Assembly (NCBI GenBank): GCA_016933575.1
Contig: JAFGAR010000151.1
Coordinates: 1 to 64,000 of the forward strand
Length of the DNA: 64,000 bases
Source: Candidatus Thorarchaeota archaeon
GTDB lineage: Archaea > Asgardarchaeota > Thorarchaeia > Thorarchaeales > Thorarchaeaceae
Reading direction: 5' to 3'
The notes under the pieces are model-generated. The model was not told the origin of the DNA. It made no database searches and was given only the letters and a program-made list of their open reading frames with translations. Below, one piece after another: positions 43,092 to 55,110 of this stretch. The stretch's first letter is position 1, and the number at the start of each line of letters is the position of its first letter. A program made the position numbers and the translations under genes.

Positions 43092-46000
43092 TTGCCTTCT
43101 GCGGAACTAAAGGAAGTTATGAGGATGAAGACGATGAAAACCAAACGTTTCAGAATGTTTGCTTTCATTCTGTTAATGTTAGGTATTCTATTGTATTCTC
43201 TAGAACCTCCTTGCAGTTATACCCCTACTGCATTAGTGACTCCTGATAGTGTACCTATTCTTGAAAATGTCTTAGAAGAATCTCGACCTACCATCCATGA
43301 TAGCATTGATTCTGTCTTTGGTCATTGGTCTCTATCAGATATCTCTATAGCGCCTCCTATCAGGGATATTCTTGAGCCTGCACTGGTCGAACAGAGTGGC
43401 TATTCATCAACAGGCAATGTATCCGCAAGAACTGATTCTTCTGTGAATACACAGGGAAGCTTGAGTATCGATACTGCTCATAATTGGGTAGCCAGTACTG
43501 CAGAGATTGATATCTGGAATCTTGAGAAGCTGTATGTTGTAAATGGCACTTTCGATGAAGGCTCTCTTGGATACACTGTCAGTCCAAATGGTACACTAGA
43601 ACATTATCCCCTTGGATGGTCTGCAGTCAGTACAAATTCCGATCCTGATCAGGTCCAACGTGTTTCCTACGAAGAAATCGGTGAACGATATATTACTATT
43701 CAAAACCAAGCTGAAGTCACAAACAATCCTCAGCATCAATATACCCACTATGCAGGCACTTCAGTACTATGGAATCAGACTTTTTACATTTCACCTTACA
43801 CTGATGAATTTCTTCTTAGTTTCAATTACTTATACCTCCAAGGACCACTCACTTCAATTTTCAGCGGCGATTTCTCATTGCAGGTCTTCATTGATGGAGA
43901 TTCTGTGTATAGTATCGACCTTCCAACTCTCAGTTCAAGGGGGACTTGGTACAGTACAGGACTTATTCCAATCAATAAGGCAATTCTATCAGACTCGACG
44001 ATGTTTATGATTGGTTTAGTGATAGATTCAACGTTCTTGGTTGATGTGATCTCGACTATGATTTGGATGGAACAGCAGATGGAATAATTAACACACAATA
44101 CATAACGGTCTATCTGGATGATGTTTCTTTAACAAGTGCAACACCCCCTGATTGTGATGCTGTGGATTTGAAATTCAGTATTGATGGTGTTATTGCACCA
44201 ATTCTTGGTAGTACAGGGAGTGGGACAGGACTTCTTCAAAACAGTAGCTATTGGACTTCTGATGTTCTTAATATCGCTATTCTTTCAAATACAAGCATCT
44301 CTCTTGATTACAATGTACAAATTCTCAATCATAGGTTCCTCAACTCAAGTTCGACCACTGACATCCTATCTGAAGGTGTTGCATACGCCGTAGATACTGA
44401 CTCAAGCGTAAACTTGGAGATATTCACGTACTTGGGGTTTCTCGGGGTGTATGACGATCTTACTCTGAAGATATCCCATCCAATAGATTGGCAGAATTTT
44501 ACCATCAGAGATCCATTCTTGACAAATGTCACAGCTTTATGTATTCTCCAGTTTGATACTATTGAGATTCCCTCAACTCTCCTTGATCGACTTGGTTGGT
44601 GGAAGATAACATGCCAGGCACCCAATTATGCTGCAAATGGAGTTATCCAAAAGTACAGTTCTGGAACTTCAAGTTGGATTGATGAAACTGTTTTTCACAG
44701 CAATGATATGGCTCGTACATCAGTTGAAATAGGTTTCAATGGAGAAGTTCCAGTCATCTCGAATCAAGTCAATTTCACATGGGCTTTACCTAACTGCACG
44801 ACATGGTATGAATCACTGAGTGCTAGTACTGGCACGGGGAGTGCTTTGAGTGAAGAAGTATCCTTTGGTCCGACAAATACAACTGCAGGACCTTGGGGTG
44901 TGATTTATCATTGGTCAAATGGGACTGAGATAGCATATAGTTGCATCACCTTTGACCTTTATCATCAGGCAGCTCTTGAGGTTGTCTTCTCGGAGAACTT
45001 GGAGACCGTTGTTGGACAGCCTGTTACAGTCGTTGTAAGATTCTACGATCTTGAGAATGGTCTATTATTGCTAAATGATGGCGCCTCAATTATTGGGACT
45101 TGGGCTGCTGGTACCATTGTCTTTGAGGCTAATATAGTCAAGAACTGGTGGGAGGCAGATTTTGATACTGCTCTCGTTGGTGCAGGTAGTTTTGAGGTCA
45201 TTCTAGAATCTGCTGCACCATACTTTGAAACAATCCCCCTTGTTGTTGTAATTAAATCCCAATTTCTGACTGCATTGGATGTGCCTCCTGGTCCATTAAC
45301 GCCACTTATCTATGGCCGGCTATATAGCTATAACTTTGTATACTCAATAACCTACAATAGTTCTGGTATTGATGATGCAATTGTTGAGATTACAGAGGAC
45401 GGTTCTGAGTGGGTATCTGTCACAAATACGGGAAATGGCCATTATAATCTCTCAATTATTCCTCTTGGTTTGAGAGATTATAGTATTAAAATCAAATTTT
45501 CAAAAGAAGGCCATGCTAACCAGTCTCATGTGTTATCCTTTCTAGTGAACAAAGTACCTATTGAGGTCGAGTCTCTTTCTAGTCTAAGTGGACTTGAGTA
45601 TCAACCACTCACCATTAATGTGAGGGTCGTTGAATTTGATACCAGAGCACCTGTTTCAGATGCCAATGTCACGTTAAATGTACTTCCCGAAGTGGGTCCT
45701 GTCTATGTTACTAAGGAAATGGTTGAGATAGGTCCTGGTGTATATAGTGCTAATATTACCATGCCCCAAGCCACATCAATGATATATAATCTTGTTATTC
45801 AGATTGAGAAAGCAAATTATGAACTTACGCAAGAATTTAGTAGTTCTCTTATCCCTGTAGCAGATGTCAATGCACAGGTACTGCTTGTCATTATGACCTA
45901 TACCTGGCAAATTGGGATTGGTGCTATCTTTCTAGTAACAGCGATAGTTGGTCAGAAGTTATATTCTCGAAAGAAACAACAGAAACATGCAACAGCCAGA

Positions 46001-46675
46001 GCAATCAAGACCCGATTTGATGATGCTCATAACCTCTTGGGTGTAATTATTCTTCACAAGCTCAGTGGAGTTCCAATCTATTCAAAGATATTGAAGGGTG
46101 GCCTTGAAGAAGGAATGCTGTCTGCTTTTATTACTGCAATCATGCACTTCAGGGAAGAGATAGATGCTGGTGGGAAAGAGACACAATATACAATCATACC
46201 AATTTCCGACATTATCAGAACAATCCATACTGAACATTTGATTTGCGCATTTATGACAATCACATCTGCTTCAAAAGAACAAGAAGCTAGGATGATGAGT
46301 TATACACGCGCAATTGGAATGACTCTTGATGATTCGTTGGCCGAACGTCCGACGAAGGTGGTCAATATACAGACAACTAAAACTCTTGAATGGATGTTTG
46401 ATGATTTTGTTGATGGTAATCTTCTCAGAGATTTCCAATTGGGCGAGAAGAAACTTCCTCGACAGTTCAAGAAGGTTAGAGATGTCATTGAAGTCATAGG
46501 TACAGATGGATCCTTCAAACTCATCTACGTTATCCGATCCATTATTGAAGAAGGAGTGTCCGAAGATGATATCTATCTTATGATAATGGAGCTAATAGAT
46601 CAGGAATATATTCTACCAATTTATTCGTATAGCGAAAATTTACTCTCCCCTTTCAACAAAATTGATACACATTAA
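43092..46675 (+). pseudogene. Giant receptor-like membrane protein 1 (ectodomain, TM, longin-like domain), frameshifted at about 44046
   Basis: ORFs 43092-44087 and 44063-46675 each align collinearly with the neighbouring paralog. Adding 1 nt at about 44046 gives VDxDLDYDLDGTADG, matching LDKRWDYDDNGIADG in the paralog. Confidence 0.75.
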
Positions 46676-46833
46676 TATCATATAGAGTACTCTATCTATT
46701 TCGAGTATTGCTTCAGGATGTATTATTTTCAAAATAACACAAATGTAATTAGAATATTATGCACCTGCTTATAGTGTTGCAGAAAACATTGATTTGGTGG
46801 AATATCAAAAACTAATGTGTTGGTGGTCGTTCA

Positions 46834-49800
46834 ATGATGAGGGTTACAATAAAACGAATCATTCAGACACTGACAATATTACTTATGCTACTCATAAGCA
46901 CTGCGTGGGTTCCAGAAATATTAAATCTGTCCATATCAAATAGTAGTTATCAGACCTCTGAATCCACTCTGCCTGAATCTCAGGCTATAATATCACCGGT
47001 TCAAGATACTCTTAATACTTCAAAAGGAAAGGTTTGCACCCTTGCCAATGATTATTCTTCACAAGGAGTTCTAGAACCAGTTGGAATAGAACAAATAGGT
47101 TATGTAGCCTCTGGAAATATCTCTGCTCGAACAGATAACCACCAGAACCTCGAATATGACCTCCCACTTGATGTTACGCATAATTGGACCGCAGACATAG
47201 CTGAAGTTTCTCTTTGGAACCTACAGAAGCTTTATGCAATCAATGGATCCTTCTCAGAAGGTTTTGCAGGAATCAATCTGAATCCAAATGGTTCAGTAGA
47301 GTACTATCCTTTAGGTTGGGATGCAAACAGCACCGATACGACACGTTATTCTGATGACTTACAGCTTGCTGTATACGATGACACTGGTAACCAGTTTATC
47401 ATGGTGGAGAACCAAGGTGGAAAAGTAGGTCAAAATGCTTATGGACATGATACAGGAATTAAAATCGTCTGGACTCAAGCTGTCGAAAACGCCCCTTACT
47501 CAGAAGATTTCCTTCTTAGCTTTGACTACTTCTATCTTAGAGGTCCCCTTGATAAGAATCCTAGTTACCCAATAGATGGAAACTGCAGCATCATAGTATC
47601 AGTGAATGGTAATCCCGTATGGAACATGAGTCTTCTTACTCTATCCCAAAGAGGAATTTGGACCGAGTCAGGTATCATCCCAATTACTATACCTGGAGCA
47701 CCATCCTCTTTTATTTTTGAGATCGGATTATTAGTTGATGAATACTTGGAACTCGATAAAAGATGGGACTATGATGATAATGGAATTGCTGATGGCATTG
47801 GAAATGCTGCATACATCACTCTTTATTTTGATGATGTTTCTTTTATAAAACAGACACCTCCAACAGCGGAGCAGGTAGACCTTGAATTCAATTCTGGACT
47901 TTTAGTATCTCCTCTTAGTGGTTCAATGGGTACATATTATACTTCTATCACCAATTCTACCTACTGGACCTCTTCATCAGTGGCTGTTTATTTAACTGCA
48001 AATACTAGCGTTTCATTTGAATATGAAACACGTCTTCTTGCACATAGATTTACCAATTCAAGCTGGAAAACTGATATTTCGAGTATTGGCGTAGCTTATG
48101 CAATAGATCATGGAACCAGCTCATTACTTACATTCTATACTTATGTTGGCTACCTAGGTAACTATGAAGAACCAGAGATGATAATTACATTCCCTATTGA
48201 CTGGGAGAACCTAACAGTATCGGATCCATTTCTCTCGGATCTTACTTCCACCTGCACGATTGATAGCGGCTATCTATTTGTTCCAACCTCAATCATCAAC
48301 CGTTTAGGGTGGTGGGAGGTTAAGCTAGAGTCACCAAACTACGCGAAGTCAATTAAGTAGCAGATCTTTGACGTTTCTTGGATAGATGAAGTACTATTTA
48401 GAATCACTAACACAACTCGCGCTGATATCACAATTGGAACTACTACGCAAGTTCTTGAGGCTCTTACCGATGTTAATATCACGTGGTACGAACCATCCAA
48501 TATTGTTTGGTTTACGGAGTTGATTAGTGGGGGAATCTTGGGGCAGATCTTTAGTAGTAACCGAACCTTTGTATCTGGTTCTTCACCTGCAGGATTATGG
48601 TGGATTGAAATCTCTTGGACAAATGGGACAGAAGTGGCTTATGATCGGGCTAGTTTCGAACTCCGCCACACTGCTGAATTGGTGGCAGATCCAGCTCTGA
48701 TTGAAACCGATATGGGCTTGACTGTCACGGGTGTGGTACGTTATACTGATGGCGATACAGGTACCAATTTACTCAATCCTAGTGCAATAATCACTGCAAA
48801 TTGGTCTGTATCGTCTGTGACTTTTGCACCTAACCCCATAAACAATTGGTGGGAGGGTTCATTTGATACGTCAATAGTTGGCGCTGGTGAATTTCTAGTT
48901 GTAGTTAGTGCCTCTCAAAGCTACTTCGACATTGCAACCTGTGAAATTATCATTCGTTCCACAAATGTAACTCGACTCAACTCCCCTAATGCACCATGGT
49001 CGTCGTCAACTTGGGGTTCAAATGTCCTTCTCACTTTCAACTATGAAGTCTATCACTATTCTACAAGTACTTGGGGACCAGTTGTAAATAATAGTGACGT
49101 TTCAGCCAATCTAAACTGGACTCAGGGATTATGGACAATTCATGAGGACTCTACACCCGGACTATACATTGCAACTCTTGATACTACAGCAAAGCCGGTC
49201 GGAACCTATCTTCTTGAGGTTAGCTTCAGCAAACCAAACCACGAACTAAAACAAATCTTACTTACGCTAATCGTATCACCCATTTCTAGCTCATTGATAG
49301 TCTTTGGTGATCCTTCAGCAAGAGTCGATATCGATGATGATTACTATCTAAAATTGGGTTATGAGGACTACACAGGAACTCCAATTGCATCAGCTTTAGT
49401 ATCTGTAGACAGCATTTCTCCACCAACAGGCCTTTCACATTCACCAATCACTCCGGTTTCTGGAGAATCTGGCAACTATTCTCTTACATTGACTCCATCA
49501 GTAGCTGGTGTTTTCACTATACGTTTCGTAGCAACAGAAGAGAACTCCGAACCTGGAACCACCGTTTTTGTACTTGTTGTCAATGATGTGGATACAAGTC
49601 TCGTTGTTGAAGGTGGCGACAGCTTCGAGATTGGATTGACAGATGTTCTCAACAAGACATTCACATACAAGACCTTCGATGATATTGGTATAGAGAATGC
49701 ATCAATTTCTATTGTCTATTCAGGAACGCCAGGAGCTTTATCGTGGAGTTGGGTTGAGAAGAGTCTTGGGAATTATTCAGTTGAAATCAGTTCTACTCTC

Positions 49801-51915
49801 TCTGGAACGTATGTTATAACAATTGCAGCATTCAAGCAGTATTATCAGAGTGCATCTGACTCGTTCTTTCTGGTCGTAAGCGATATTACAACTAATCTAG
49901 AAGTTCTAAATGGTACTGCTGGGATTATCAGCTATGGTTCGGACTTTAGAATGGTTATGTCTTACACTAATGGTACCGGTTATGGGTTGTCTAGTGCTAA
50001 TGTCACCATTGAGAGTGCTACACCTTCAACAGGATTGTCTTGGAGTACCACACAATCTGGCACGGCTGGTATCTACTCGATAATATTGACTCCCGAAATA
50101 TCCGACACATTTACAATACTCTTGAAGGCTTCCCTTCTAAATCATCAGACTCAATTTGTACTCTTTACTATCACAGCCACTGCAATTGCTACTAGCCTTA
50201 CTGTACTCAATGCTAGTACTACAATATCTTACGATCAGAACTTCACAGTTTATCTTCACTATCAGAGTGAAGATTTAGTTGGTCTTGAGGGAGCTACCCT
50301 TAGCATTCAGAATCCCCCATCAGAGGTGAATTATACGATTTTCGAGGATCTTACTGGTGGGTACTACCGTATAACACTGACACCTCAAGAGATTGGTACA
50401 TTCGACATCATATTTCGTGCTGAGCTTGTTGGATACCAGAGTGATACATCCGGATTTGTACTCGGAGCAGCTCGGATTCAAACAGAATTACGTTTGTTGA
50501 GTGGGTTGACATCTGACACAATCGGGTATTTAGAATCAAGTGAATTGACATTGATCTTTGAAAGAACAGATCTCAATCGAAACATCACTGGGGCTAACAT
50601 TACTGTTCAATTGAATCCAACAACCGGATTGAATTGGACCTTCAGTGAAGAATCAGGAATTTATCATATTACACTTACGCCAAATCATATCGGTCGATGG
50701 ATTCTAACTATAAGCGCTTCAAAGACAGGATATGCTGTTGGTTCTGCTCAGTTCATACTCGATGTGGAACCAATTCGTGTCCAAGCAGAACTTCTAACTC
50801 TTCCTGTTGCCACAGAGGGTGTTGAATTTACAATCGAGATTTCCCTGATTCAAGAAGGAACAACCAACCCAGTCACAGGAGCTCTAGTCCAATATCGGAT
50901 GACACCCGTTGGCGGTCTCGAGGGTGCCTATGAGGTAATGACTGAAACAGATCAACCTGGAGTCTATAGGGTTACGTACACATTTCCACTTTATGAGTCT
51001 ATAAGTGATTATCAATTAGAAATTCAGATATTCAAAGACAATTATGTATTGGTCGGAGATACATTCACCTCATTGTTCTCTAAATCCGAAGATGCAATTC
51101 TCCGTATTGTTCCCGTTGCAACAGGAGGAGTCATCCTTGCCGCACTCTTCATTGGTTCAGTAATCAGTTATCGTGTGTATGCCTCACGGAAGAAACGGAA
51201 GAATCTTGAGGCACTACAGGTGAAGAAGCGATTCGATGATGTTTCCAATATTCTGGGTATTATTGTCCTCCATAAGAAGAGCGGTTTGCCTGTCTATTCG
51301 AAGGTATTGCGTGGTGGCTTTGAAGAGGCAATGGTCTCTGCTTTCATCACTGCTATCACTCACTTCAGATCAGAATTCGGAATGGATGAGAAACAATGGG
51401 ACTTCAATGTCATTCCTATCTCTGACATCATAAGCGCGGTACCTACTAGAAACCTGATTGTTGCATTCATTACAGTAAGGTCTCCATCAAAATTCCAAGA
51501 GATAGGAATGGAAGCCTTTGCTAGGGCAGTAGGCGCAATGTTTGATGATATTTTGGTAGATGGGAGAGCTACCATTGTAGATGAAGAAAAGGTAAGAATA
51601 TTCGATAATTTGTTCAATGACCTTCTTGATGGTTTCTTAGTTGAGAAGTTCAGAACATCAAAAGACGCAGCATTTCCGAAGTCAATGAAATGCCTCGTAG
51701 AAACTGCAATACAACTTGAGAATGGTGAAGGCTTCAAGCTGGAGGACTTGGCTAAGGGCATGGCAACGTGCGGAATTGAGGAGTCATATGCCTATAAGTT
51801 GGTCATGGATGCAATTGAAGAAAAACTGATAGAAGCCACCACAGGAGATAAGCCTGAACCGATTGCACCAGCCTTTGTTGATAGAACACTTCCTGACGAT
51901 GGAAACTTGGGGTAG
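46834..51915 (+). pseudogene. Giant receptor-like membrane protein 2 (about 1693 codons) with in-frame TAG at 48358-48360
   Basis: The frame stays open for 53 codons from the TAG to the next ORF (48520). The bridge QIFDVSWIDEVLF matches QKYSSGTSSWIDETVF in paralog 1. A TM helix and RKKRK are followed by a longin-like domain. Confidence 0.75.
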
Positions 51916-51999: not shown

Positions 52000-52686
52000 A
52001 TGAGTCCGGGATTCCTAAGTGATAAGAGATCTGTCGTTGCAATCATCATTGCGATACCATTGGCAATTATATCCTATGTGTTTGTGCGACCAATTGACTA
52101 TACAGTTTCTCTAATGGTCTTTGGAGTAGCCTTAGTACTCTTTCTCTTTGCATGTCTCCTTGATACCGCTGATGAATTTAGGAGTGTTCAAAAGAGCACT
52201 CCCAAACCCCTTGTCAAAGGGACTCCTAGACCAACTGTTGTTGAGGAGCATGAGGAAGAATACGTGCCTGCTGTTGAAAGACCTGCTGCTGCTCCTAGTG
52301 ACCTGCCTGTTGAAACAATTGAAGGCATTGGCCCTGTCTATGGCAAATTACTTCGAGAAGCAGGTGTTGAGACCGTTGCTGATATGCTCGCTGTTGATTC
52401 GGAGAAAATCGCTGAAATCTGTGATGTCAATGTAGACCAGGCTGAACGTTGGTTGGCGATGAGTCGTTTTGCCTGGCTTGATGCAATTTCGGAAGAGGAT
52501 GCTGAGGCAATTGTGTTCGCAGGCAAAATTGCAGAACTAGAAGAACTTGCTGCGGCAAATGCTGATGAGCTCTACAGAAAGATTCAATCAGCAATTAATG
52601 AAGGTGACGTCAGAGTTCCTGCTGGCTATACCTTCAGTGTGGTTAAGATCCAGAAGTGGATTGATGAAGCCAAGAGCTTGGTATAG
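52000..52686 (+). CDS. Membrane-anchored helix-hairpin-helix (DUF4332-like) protein
   Basis: Two N-terminal TM helices, a Pro/Glu linker, then IEGIGPVYGKLLREAGVETVADML and a second degenerate HhH, ending IQKWIDEAK. Confidence 0.78.
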   Translation: MSPGFLSDKRSVVAIIIAIPLAIISYVFVRPIDYTVSLMVFGVALVLFLFACLLDTADEFRSVQKSTPKPLVKGTPRPTVVEEHEEEYVPAVERPAAAPSDLPVETIEGIGPVYGKLLREAGVETVADMLAVDSEKIAEICDVNVDQAERWLAMSRFAWLDAISEEDAEAIVFAGKIAELEELAAANADELYRKIQSAINEGDVRVPAGYTFSVVKIQKWIDEAKSLV

Positions 52687-52795: not shown

Positions 52796-53698
52796 CTACA
52801 TATCAAGACCTGCAGGATCTTTCCAGACATCCTTATTCAGGTAGCCAATGAATAAGGGCTTTGAGAGACCATCTCTTGCAATCCACATGAGGAATGGTCT
52901 ATTGATTACATAGGGTTCAGTCTTTATAGGAGCAGCTCCTGCAAGTATCCCTAACGCAACTGCGCTCTTTACCCTAAACCCTTCTTCATTCATCTTCAAC
53001 TTGGTCTGCTGTAGAGCTTGAGAGATAACGTAGAATGGTTCTTTTCCCTTAGGTGTGATGAACTGAAGGCCTAGAATCCAATCCAGCATGATCTCTTCAT
53101 CAAGGTCAATTTTCGGGAATATGAATCCATCATATTCGAATGGAGTTTCCTGTTTGTTATTATGTATGTTTTCTACAAAGTTCTGTAAAGCAAGCCCAGT
53201 AGGAACTTCATCGACCATCATTAGATGTACATGATCGCCTTCCCTAGTTTCAATATCAATGATATAGTTTGGATTATCGCGCACTCGATAGAACTTCTTA
53301 CCATAATTCGTCATTTTGATTCCTGGATAGTACTCTCCGTCTTCTGTCTGCACAGACCATTTTTTGCCTTTGATTGCCCATTCACCCAAGAGATCCAACA
53401 TGCTTGCAACTCCAAACCCTCCTGGTCCAAAGTCTTTAAGTCTGATCTGAAATCCCCTTTCCTCCAACCACTTATTGATTCTCTTGTGATTGGTATCTGC
53501 TATACTCTCAATCTCCTTGATTCGAGGAATATCGCCTTTGCAAGACGAAAAAATTTCGTTAAGGAATTTCTTCTGAATGTCATTGGTTATCGTAATCGTT
53601 TCAACATTCTTGAGGAACATTTCCGCCTCTCGAACTGCTGATACTATTGGATACACAACAAGTGTCTGTGTCTTTGTTGTCATCGTTTCAGGTCTCAT
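52796..53698 (-). CDS. Minimal serpin-fold protein 1
   Basis: RINKWL (hF), LDLLGEW (s3A), FPKIDL, QQTKLKMNEEG (s5A), YVINRPFLMWI...PLFIGYL serpin signature. Confidence 0.72.
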   Translation of the reverse strand: MRPETMTTKTQTLVVYPIVSAVREAEMFLKNVETITITNDIQKKFLNEIFSSCKGDIPRIKEIESIADTNHKRINKWLEERGFQIRLKDFGPGGFGVASMLDLLGEWAIKGKKWSVQTEDGEYYPGIKMTNYGKKFYRVRDNPNYIIDIETREGDHVHLMMVDEVPTGLALQNFVENIHNNKQETPFEYDGFIFPKIDLDEEIMLDWILGLQFITPKGKEPFYVISQALQQTKLKMNEEGFRVKSAVALGILAGAAPIKTEPYVINRPFLMWIARDGLSKPLFIGYLNKDVWKDPAGLDM

Positions 53699-54228: not shown

Positions 54229-55110
54229 CTACATATCAAGACCTTCCGGATTTTTCCAGACATCCTTGTTGAGGTAGGCTACGAAAAGAGGCTTTGAGAG
54301 TCCAGGTCTTGTTATCCACATCAGGAATGGTCGATTAATCACATATGGTTCTCCTCTTCTTGGTGGTGCTTTCAAGATTCCCATTGCAACTGCACTCTTC
54401 ACTCTGAATCCTTCGTGATTCATTTTGAGTTTTGTCTGTTGAAGAGCCTCAGCCACAACCATACCTCCAACATTGAGGCCAATGAGCCACTTAAGAACTC
54501 CTTCTTCATTAAGGTCAATCATCGGAAAGACAACGCCTTCATATTCTGGTTCGATTTTTCTCATTTCCCTCGAAATATCTTCTACATGCTTCACAAGCGA
54601 TAGACCGGCAGGAGCATGATCCGCCATCAAGAGAAACACCTTGTCGCTTGCTTTGGTTTCAATCTCGATGATGATGTTTTGATTTCCCTCTACCCTATAG
54701 AATCCAAGCCCGTAATTGGTCATCTTGATCCCTGGATAATAGTTACCATCCTCTGTGGACACAGACCATTTCTCACCATTTTTTGCCCATTTGCCTAGAA
54801 GATCAAGCATACTCGCAATACCAAAACCTCCCTCACTAATTGAACTCAGCTGAATAGAGAAACCTCGTTCTTTCAACCAATTATTGATCTTCTTGATATT
54901 GGTATCGGCGATACTCTCAATCTCGTGAATCTTTGGGATATCACTCTTGCATGAATTATAGAACTCCTTGATGAAAATCTTCTGAGTGTCATTTGTTGGT
55001 ACCAATCCATCTGTATTTCTCAGAAACTCCTCTGCCTTGAGTAATGCTGAGACCATAGGGTATGTCACTTGACATCTTGTTCTGTCAGGTCTTTCGTCTG
55101 AATCTGTCAT
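54229..55110 (-). CDS. Minimal serpin-fold protein 2
   Basis: Clear paralog of 52796-53698 (IESIADTN, YYPGIKMTNYG, QQTKLKMNHEGFRVKSAVA, YVINRPFLMWI). Confidence 0.72.
   Translation of the reverse strand: MTDSDERPDRTRCQVTYPMVSALLKAEEFLRNTDGLVPTNDTQKIFIKEFYNSCKSDIPKIHEIESIADTNIKKINNWLKERGFSIQLSSISEGGFGIASMLDLLGKWAKNGEKWSVSTEDGNYYPGIKMTNYGLGFYRVEGNQNIIIEIETKASDKVFLLMADHAPAGLSLVKHVEDISREMRKIEPEYEGVVFPMIDLNEEGVLKWLIGLNVGGMVVAEALQQTKLKMNHEGFRVKSAVAMGILKAPPRRGEPYVINRPFLMWITRPGLSKPLFVAYLNKDVWKNPEGLDM

Follow-up and report, generated by a model that had tools for sequence, protein, structure and literature searches.

Tandem paralogs of a predicted Asgard surface glycoprotein family with a cytoplasmic longin and winged-helix-like tail in a Candidatus Thorarchaeota archaeon

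In this work, two adjoining genes on the + strand of a Candidatus Thorarchaeota archaeon were analysed within a window of 64,000 nucleotides (the whole stretch under analysis, positions 1 to 64,000 of contig JAFGAR010000151.1, assembly GCA_016933575.1). Four long open reading frames (ORFs) at 43092-51915 make up these two genes: gene 1 (43092-46675) joins ORF 43092-44087 and ORF 44063-46675 into about 1180 codons, and gene 2 (46834-51915) joins ORF 46834-48360 and ORF 48520-51915 into about 1693 codons when an internal TAG is read through. We place genes 1 and 2, as tandem paralogs, in an unannotated Asgard family of predicted type-I, single-pass, N-glycosylated surface proteins and hypothesize, at about even confidence, that their tail is a docking platform for a cytosolic partner. 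Strongly predicted for the outer part is a beta-rich head of about 270 residues with an acidic loop of the DxDxDG type, continued by a beta-sandwich stalk that has a variable number of immunoglobulin (Ig)-like modules. Inside the cell, a juxtamembrane helix is predicted to lead without interruption into the longin domain, behind which an acidic winged-helix-like domain follows. The features of the two genes are as follows.

43092..44047, + strand: gene 1, 5' part in frame 1, with a signal/anchor-like N-terminus (~43119-43202) and a jelly-roll-like head (~43362-44045)
44046..44047, + strand: gene 1 frameshift site, two extra bases GT by comparison with orthologs
44048..46675, + strand: gene 1, 3' part in another frame, comprising the DLDYDLDG loop and the beta-rich stalk and running through the stop codon
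44048-44071, + strand: gene 1 loop DLDYDLDG, at the start of the 3' part
~45215-45862, + strand: two Ig-like modules of gene 1, within the beta-rich stalk
45878..45985, + strand: gene 1 transmembrane helix (45878-45964) and stop-transfer stretch SRKKQQK (45965-45985)
46031..46429, + strand: gene 1 longin domain, predicted cytoplasmic (model tail residues 18-150; pLDDT 91; 2j3w_A, Z 11.3)
46421..46630, + strand: gene 1 C-terminal winged-helix-like domain (tail residues 148-217), from the order of helices and strands, a structural match at rank 48 (Z 7.5) and the HTH_36 cluster
46834..51915, + strand: gene 2, with a signal-like N-terminus (46834-46908) and a head (47041-47868)
47767-47784, + strand: gene 2 loop DYDDNG, inside the head
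48358..48360, + strand: in-frame TAG of gene 2, where orthologs carry S, A or V
~48931-51078, + strand: seven Ig-like modules of gene 2
51091..51201, + strand: gene 2 transmembrane helix (51091-51183) and stop-transfer stretch SRKKRK (51184-51201)
51247..51645, + strand: gene 2 longin domain, predicted cytoplasmic, placed by alignment to the modelled gene-1 tail
51637..51849, + strand: gene 2 winged-helix-like domain, placed by the same alignment

The tail of gene 1 was modelled with AlphaFold2 (AF2) from an alignment of 99 sequences, for which relatives were collected with HMMER from 1.84 billion cluster representatives. The model reached a predicted local distance difference test score (pLDDT) of 91.2 and a predicted template modelling score (pTM) of 0.87; a model from the single sequence (pLDDT 34) was unusable. 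The juxtamembrane helix (residues 2-18) leads into a beta-beta-alpha-beta-beta-beta-alpha-alpha unit (residues 19-143), in which DSSP places strands at 19-26, 32-37, 72-74, 79-83 and 87-93 and helices at 44-64, 99-116 and 130-143. This is the longin order beta1-beta2-alpha1-beta3-beta4-beta5-alpha2-alpha3 with a five-stranded antiparallel sheet. An exhaustive VIA-align search returned 34 chains at Z >= 8; with few exceptions, the listed ones belong to longin or roadblock proteins, and the alignments cover model residues 18-150. The best were sedlin/TRAPPC2 (2j3w_A, Z 11.3, root-mean-square deviation (rmsd) 3.3, 128 residues aligned), TRAPPII (7e2c_H, Z 10.9) and AP-3 sigma (7p3x_S, Z 10.6), and further matches included VAMP7, Sec22b, SRX and a Lokiarchaeota longin (8yqg_B, Z 8.8). 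Roadblock proteins aligned over a shorter range (residues 14-121, Z 7.9-8.9). In Foldseek, the top 50 PDB matches were all longin or roadblock proteins (AP sigma/mu, zeta-COP, Sec22b, Gtr1/2, MglB, Ragulator, Mon1-Ccz1 and Asgard roadblock), with E-values that are marginal, from 1.6e-3. In the model, the domain is a longin rather than a roadblock domain because the aligned range includes the two C-terminal helices. After the longin unit comes a helix-strand-helix-helix-strand unit (residues 161-213; helices 161-173, 181-190 and 195-207, strands 178-180 and 211-213), which follows the winged-helix order helix-strand-helix-helix-strand(-strand). It matched 6ec8_A (Z 7.5, rmsd 2.3, 69 residues aligned) and an HTH_36/HTH_24 cluster (TM-score 0.60/0.56), scores that are modest for a short domain.

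A single transmembrane helix was found in each protein, and the tails behind the basic stop-transfer stretch are 236 (gene 1) and 243 residues (gene 2) long. Both N-termini consist of a basic stretch and then a hydrophobic stretch. Ser, Thr and Asn together account for 26-28% of the ectodomains, Lys and Arg for 3-4%, and the net charges are -70 (gene 1) and -100 (gene 2). The ectodomains contain 18 and 35 N-x-S/T sequons, whereas shuffles matched in composition give 9.8 and 16.1 on average (z 3.0 and 5.4); neither tail has any. A type-I single-pass topology, with the ectodomain outside and the tail in the cytoplasm, is strongly predicted because the positive-inside residues, the position of all sequons N-terminal of the transmembrane helix, the compositional contrast and the signal-like N-terminus agree. 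Genes 1 and 2 are collinear paralogs with 41% identity in the head (E 8e-59), 35% in the middle part (E 1.8e-96), 30% in the membrane-proximal part and 39% in the tails (E 3e-46). Gene 2 carries about 460 additional residues, which consist of repeat modules. Intact orthologs have 1177-1210 residues for the gene-1 type and 1690-1720 for the gene-2 type, in agreement with the two paralogs of about 1180 and 1690 residues that an earlier note on this DNA had proposed once the frames were repaired. Its architecture (signal sequence, sequon-rich ectodomain, DxDxDG-type loop, Ig-like repeats differing in number, one transmembrane helix and a basic stop-transfer) was found in full at the positions listed above, so that the observation is confirmed. 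The same note had placed the tail in the cytosol, given it a longin-like fold to be checked by AlphaFold and Foldseek, and added a winged-helix-like end; topology, structural matches and domain order bear out all three. That the two genes are interrupted in this assembly received no emphasis in the note.

The tail motif quoted in that note turned out to be the consensus of the 99 relatives. A near-invariant beta1-beta2 hairpin, H-K-x-S-G-[LIV]-P-x-Y-S, and helix alpha1 characterise these tails, with G30 in 99/99, P32 in 94/99 and S35 in 96/99, while F50, A53 and F57 are each present in 99/99. Among the arginines, R12 is conserved in 90/99 and R58 in 91/99. R80 is restricted to the gene-1 clade, where it is invariant, and is replaced by S in the gene-2 clade. 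Position 85 is R or K in the gene-2 clade and mostly acidic, polar or Pro/Gly in the gene-1 clade (K in 1/21). Between gene-2 orthologs, longin identity was 74-80% versus 38-70% for parts of the ectodomain in two of three comparisons, and between gene-1 orthologs it was 63-71%. Judged from these alignments, the longin domain is the best conserved region between orthologs or among the best. Conservation in the gene-1 tail is lowest in the winged-helix-like domain (28-43% identity).

The search with the tail found 126 cluster representatives, nearly all with the domain at the C-terminus of proteins of 800-2300 residues, and all the named ones are annotated as "hypothetical protein". A pattern scan built on a 20-sequence alignment yielded 76 loci in 185,579 species genomes, almost all labelled Thorarchaeota and a few Hermodarchaeota or Promethearchaeota. 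When 400 genomes of the phylum were searched with the tail profile, strong matches (E about 1e-57 to 1e-95) occurred in 82 of the 85 genomes of the GTDB family to which the window belongs, with 2-7 copies each, and weaker ones (E 1e-6 to 1e-25) in 341 of the 400. In five other Asgard families, the weaker matches come immediately behind a transmembrane helix and basic residues; their open frames span 740-2037 codons, and one genome has up to 12 of them. The close subfamily is thus Thorarchaeota-specific and the combination of transmembrane helix and longin domain Asgard-wide, since strong matches fall in the family of the window itself and weaker ones with the same layout in five others. In a few distant copies there is no transmembrane helix, and winged-helix-like units are repeated on the N-terminal side.

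The head spans about 270 residues, with DYDLDG (gene 1) or DYDDNG (gene 2) at its end and ..YIT.Y.DDVS. thereafter, and it gave no Pfam match and no PDB match in a profile search by sequence. A lectin-like or carbohydrate-binding module (CBM)-like jelly roll was considered for it; the best ESM Atlas scores (0.81; galactose-binding-like, CBM_4_9, DUF642) were within the range of shuffled proteins, which leaves a lead only. The stalk has a periodic signature of about 98 residues, G.Y.ltLTP...G.f.i, with seven copies in gene 2 and two in gene 1. Gene 2 scored above the Pfam cut-off for CarboxypepD_reg (36.0 bits, cut-off 32.3) and YtkA (27.6, cut-off 25.9) and slightly below it for Big_1 (33.1, cut-off 34.9); relatives carry Invasin_D3, Filamin and Big_1 domains. 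Repeated modules with profile matches above cut-off place the stalk among the Ig-like/beta-sandwich surface repeats, with Pfam support for the Ig-like fold of the modules that is weak and mixed.

Both genes are interrupted in this assembly. In gene 1, frame 1 is homologous to orthologs through ..STFLVD (GAT 44043-44045) and then runs, past 44047, over 13 unrelated codons to a stop at 44085-44087; homology resumes in the second frame from DLDYDLDG (GAT 44048). The extra GT sits between the two GAT codons and can be read as a TG duplication inside GAT-GAT. The lesion would be either a 2-base insertion or a 1-base deletion, because gene-1 orthologs pass this point in one frame as ..VVD-DLDYD.. 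(insertion) or as ..ADADLDYD.. (deletion). In gene 2, homology to orthologs is clear for the 53 codons that separate the TAG from the next listed ORF. Decoding of this TAG as pyrrolysine was rejected: there is no PylS match (the genome is 85.5% complete), the gene's own stop is also TAG, and the codon in orthologs is one for S, A or V. The two copies either are alleles inactivated recently or carry assembly errors. Real pseudogenes, on their way to being lost here while a third paralog carries the function, are possible, although we lean away from this view. Two independent lesions lie within 4.3 kb, every gene-1 and gene-2 ortholog examined is a single open frame, the PylS and terminator findings fit, the gene-1 tail is on a long terminal branch (0.40 versus a median of 0.11), and the third paralog is intact. 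On the other hand, long branches also occur in other members of the gene-1 clade, and apart from the two lesions the frames are clean over 3.5 and 5.1 kb and homologous right through the breaks; therefore the lesions are either very recent or consensus errors of the metagenome assembly (85.5% complete, 6.9% contamination). In public sequencing runs, no piece of the candidate source run spans either lesion, and none of the runs listed with this sequence is of RNA. A 'hot springs metagenome' run has eight short contigs that match stretches of genes 1 and 2 at 92-95% identity (window 44200-47700), with both lesion sites uncovered, and by this identity a fairly close relative is present in a second study. 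Genomes of the same genus cannot be used as near-identical comparators for the lesions because their DNA identity is just 64-70%.

We hypothesize that the tail would act as a membrane-fixed docking platform for a cytosolic partner, most likely one of the Ras-superfamily small GTPases of the genome or a roadblock or longin protein that regulates these. When the ectodomain binds a ligand or clusters at the cell surface, this would then set the position of the partner at the membrane. Longin and roadblock domains are known as platforms for small GTPases (PMC3747258), and the genome has 26 Ras-superfamily matches and six roadblock proteins as possible partners. Several points weigh against this hypothesis. 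The interruption of both genes means that they possibly have no function in this organism. The tail matches no Pfam or NCBIfam family, and no solved structure matches it by sequence, a PDB profile search having given just 1nig_A (E 0.36). Among the window proteins there was no match at cut-off to Pfam Longin, Clat_adaptor_s, Sedlin_N, Sybindin or Robl_LC7, and a Pfam scan of the 99 tails at E <= 1 gave MAPKK1_Int only (3/99, best E 0.034). The shared fold shows no function, and longin domains bind non-GTPase partners too, including SNARE motifs, adaptor subunits and TRAPP subunits. With a hidden Markov model of 21 of the genome's own Ras-like proteins, none of 908 ORFs within about 6 kb in 76 related loci was matched, and none in the window; the gene context therefore gives no GTPase link, and the cognate small GTPase that would mark a GTPase-coupled receptor is not encoded nearby. 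A Bet3 homolog docking on a sedlin-like tail (proto-TRAPP) was also considered, and PF04051 had no match in the genome; the controls were silent too, so this result is uninformative.

The same architecture could belong to structural envelope proteins or adhesins, as in an S-layer-like coat or cell-cell or cell-mineral adhesion, in which the tail anchors, sorts or assembles, for example by a tie to the cytoskeleton or ESCRT, with no signal and no GTPase. The type-I layout, the sequon-rich, acidic and Lys/Arg-poor ectodomain and the Ig-like modules are typical of archaeal surface glycoproteins; the 2-7 copies per genome, the varying module number, the ectodomain/tail mosaics and the lack of GTPase neighbours are in line with this, and the gene-1 ectodomain is about as conserved as the gene-1 longin. 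We nevertheless consider this explanation unlikely, since a two-domain tail of 235 residues with a near-invariant hairpin and helix far exceeds the needs of a membrane anchor, the tail is more conserved than the ectodomain in gene-2 orthologs, and the same tail occurs on very different ectodomains across Asgard families, pointing to a specific cytoplasmic partner. We regard as highly improbable a membrane-tethered transcription factor of the ToxR/CadC one-component type, in which the winged helix would bind DNA and the longin would be a sensor or dimeriser. The C-terminal helix-strand order, the resemblance to HTH_36/HTH_24 and PriA winged-helix models (TM-score 0.55-0.60) and an HTH_47-bearing Asgard cluster that aligns over tail residues 18-201 would suit it. 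Over the 99 sequences, however, the domain has a mean net charge of -2.2 (range -11 to +5) and its third ('recognition') helix likewise a mean of -2.2, so there is no basic recognition helix or wing, and no conserved basic patch was seen in the consensus; the low conservation of the domain in the gene-1 tail also argues against this role. DNA binding is unlikely because the domain is acidic.

A catalytic longin GTPase-activating protein (GAP) of the folliculin/NPRL2/SMCR8 type, acting on Rag- or Arf-like GTPases, seems quite improbable to us; the tandem paralogs would then form a catalytic/non-catalytic heterodimer, as in three eukaryotic complexes. Chains of FLCN-FNIP2, GATOR1, C9orf72-SMCR8 and the SEA complex are among the structural matches (Z 7.6-8.3), but TRAPP and adaptor longins, which are not GAPs, outscore them. 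In GAP longins, the loop leading to beta-2 ends in a specific GP motif (PMC12290439). The conserved Gly and Pro directly before beta-2 in the tails are a putative counterpart of it, although spaced as G-x-P (S-G-[LIV]-P), unlike GP. Distant Asgard relatives keep R-x-A-L at beta-5 in about 11 of 17, with the Arg two residues before the invariant Ala, whereas this subfamily has I, V or L at the aligned position ([ILV]-C-A-[FIL]), a further point against GTPase coupling. The R-x-A-L of the distant relatives resembles the arginine-finger context of NPRL2, and its Arg may be equivalent to the eukaryotic finger. Because the subfamily is without this Arg, the tail in our docking hypothesis would be a scaffold or anchor rather than a catalytic GAP. 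Folliculin (PF11704) had no match in the genome at E <= 1, and the sole match to NPR2 (PF06218) had E 0.19 and was on another contig, which also tells against GTPase coupling. No Rag- or Arf-like gene is nearby, and many Thorarchaeota lineages have a single gene at the locus, although the tandem pair is kept in about 20 loci. A related idea, that the pair is a membrane-embedded counterpart of FLCN-FNIP, NPRL2-NPRL3 and SMCR8-C9orf72, in which the tails pair via their longins and recruit or regulate an Asgard small GTPase without a lipid anchor, is improbable and is kept as a minority reading because of the clade-specific basic residues (R80 in the gene-1 clade against S80, and R/K85 in the gene-2 clade). 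A complex prediction of the gene-1 and gene-2 tails scored 0.01, under the mark and run without controls, and counts as evidence neither for nor against binding. If this heterodimer existed, surface events would directly set the state or location of a GTPase, a link from receptor to GTPase predating eukaryotes.

The interpretation in the earlier note therefore stands in part. The longin fold, the winged-helix end and the cytosolic tail hold, so that fold and topology bear out the longin reading. For a link of the tail to GTPases or trafficking there was no support beyond the fold, as there were no nearby GTPase genes and no Folliculin or NPR2 match and the Arg was missing; the signalling/GTPase reading is plausible, unsupported by context or by motifs in this subfamily. 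The phrase 'eukaryote-like receptor class' was overstated: the domain is eukaryote-like, but the order ectodomain, transmembrane helix, longin and winged helix has, to our knowledge, no eukaryotic counterpart.

The two genes belong to a recurring gene order, DNA ligase - PTPS - folE2 - [1-3 paralogs] - a two-transmembrane DUF4332/HHH_5 protein. The last of these is the downstream neighbour here:

52000..52686, + strand: two-transmembrane protein with a cytoplasmic HHH_5/DUF4332 domain, 84 nucleotides after gene 2

This gene follows the last paralog in at least nine related loci, with a median gap of 59 nucleotides. Among the clades of a tree built from 88 tails, that of gene 1 (21 rows) received a Shimodaira-Hasegawa-like approximate likelihood ratio test (SH-aLRT) support of 99, next to gene-2-type clades and a third clade (SH-aLRT 100), and the separation of the gene-1, gene-2 and third-paralog clades was supported at 97-100. 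The third paralog of this genome is an intact protein of 1165 residues in the third clade, encoded on contig 78 (L080:4885-10265, about 128.9-134.3 kb), and its relatives have an extra Laminin_G_3-type N-terminal domain. It is followed at 69 nucleotides by a gene for a cytoplasmic 378-residue protein with N-terminal leucine-rich repeats (LRRs) and a C-terminal half of no assigned family, and then by one for a 202-residue Zn-ribbon protein with two transmembrane helices. This trio recurs in 12-15 related loci, with a typical LRR gap of about 66 nucleotides in the third clade. Because of this recurrence, the three genes may form an operon, which makes the LRR protein a candidate partner of the tail. 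An exchange of ectodomains and tails among paralogs is suggested by a mosaic ortholog (L008:6878-11962), whose head is 62% identical to that of gene 2 while its tail (longin 53%, winged helix 26%) falls into another clade. A 6.6-kb contig labelled 'uncultured Ignavibacteria bacterium' (CAYOSZ010000137.1, L011) carries a Thorarchaeota-type tandem pair with 55% identity to the gene-1 tail and is probably mis-binned. In the window, two ORFs of about 295 residues on the - strand (52796-53698 and 54229-55110) match the serpin profile just at its C-terminal end (E 1e-6 and 1.5e-4).

Compared with eukaryotic longins (TRAPPC2/sedlin, TRAPPC1/C4 synbindin, AP sigma/mu N-domains, zeta/delta-COP, Sec22b/VAMP7 and SRX of SR-alpha), the tail has the same fold and order over about 115-128 residues (Z 9-11.3, rmsd 2.8-3.6), but sequence identity is just 7-13% and no Pfam longin-type profile is matched. 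Moreover, the domain here lies directly below the transmembrane helix, C-terminal in a giant extracellular protein, and is followed by the winged-helix-like domain. The longin SNAREs (VAMP7, Sec22b, Ykt6) have the opposite order, a longin, a SNARE motif and a C-terminal anchor without an ectodomain, and neither this layout nor a match to Synaptobrevin or another SNARE family of Pfam was found. A likeness to Ragulator-Rag, anchored by LAMTOR1, and to MglB-MglA is proposed in the logic of a membrane-attached roadblock/longin platform, with roadblock chains of MglB (3t1r_A), Gse1p (3lgo_A) and LAMTOR (6u62_F) at Z 7.9-8.9. The anchor of Ragulator is a lipidated subunit, whereas here it is a transmembrane receptor-like protein with a longin instead of a roadblock domain and no GTPase encoded nearby. 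With FLCN-FNIP, NPRL2-NPRL3, SMCR8-C9orf72 and the FLCN/SMCR8-type longins of Heimdallarchaeia (PMC12290439), the tails share the fold, a Gly/Pro motif before beta-2 and the occurrence as adjoining paralog pairs; they differ in the G-x-P spacing, the hydrophobic residue at the Arg position, the absence of DENN domains and the membrane-spanning layout with a huge ectodomain. The soluble Asgard roadblock/longin structures (8yqg, 8yqk, 7yh1, 9jq8, 9jue; PMC10933270) belong to the same superfamily and phylum (Z 7.3-8.8), but are small cytosolic proteins or GTPase fusions, whereas this family is membrane-anchored and unannotated, with ectodomains of roughly 600-2100 residues as judged from the protein lengths. 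Signal peptide, dense sequons, acidic ectodomain, Ig-like modules and C-terminal transmembrane helix are shared with archaeal S-layer-type glycoproteins and Big_1/invasin-type bacterial adhesins. In S-layer-type glycoproteins and Ig-repeat adhesins, no more than a short cytoplasmic stub is known; here, the two-domain tail is among the best conserved parts. In the literature searched, which left out many subscription papers, no description of a transmembrane-anchored Asgard longin protein was found. The architecture is that of Asgard longin proteins placed on a single-pass glycoprotein, a known fold in an unannotated placement.

Asgard archaea encode many eukaryote-like small GTPases together with longin and roadblock proteins. 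How these GTPases are targeted to membranes is open, since they are without eukaryotic lipid anchors, and in Thorarchaeota the Rab-like GTPases have no lipidated C-terminal extension (PMC10933270). By placing a longin domain immediately beneath the plasma membrane, at the base of a large glycosylated ectodomain, this widespread and conserved family would offer a testable candidate for a membrane address of such GTPases. Defining the family would by itself improve the annotation of hundreds of Asgard genomes, because no Pfam model covers it and every relative seen is a "hypothetical protein". Outside-in signalling is a further candidate role of the family in Asgard archaea, the archaea most closely related to eukaryotes.

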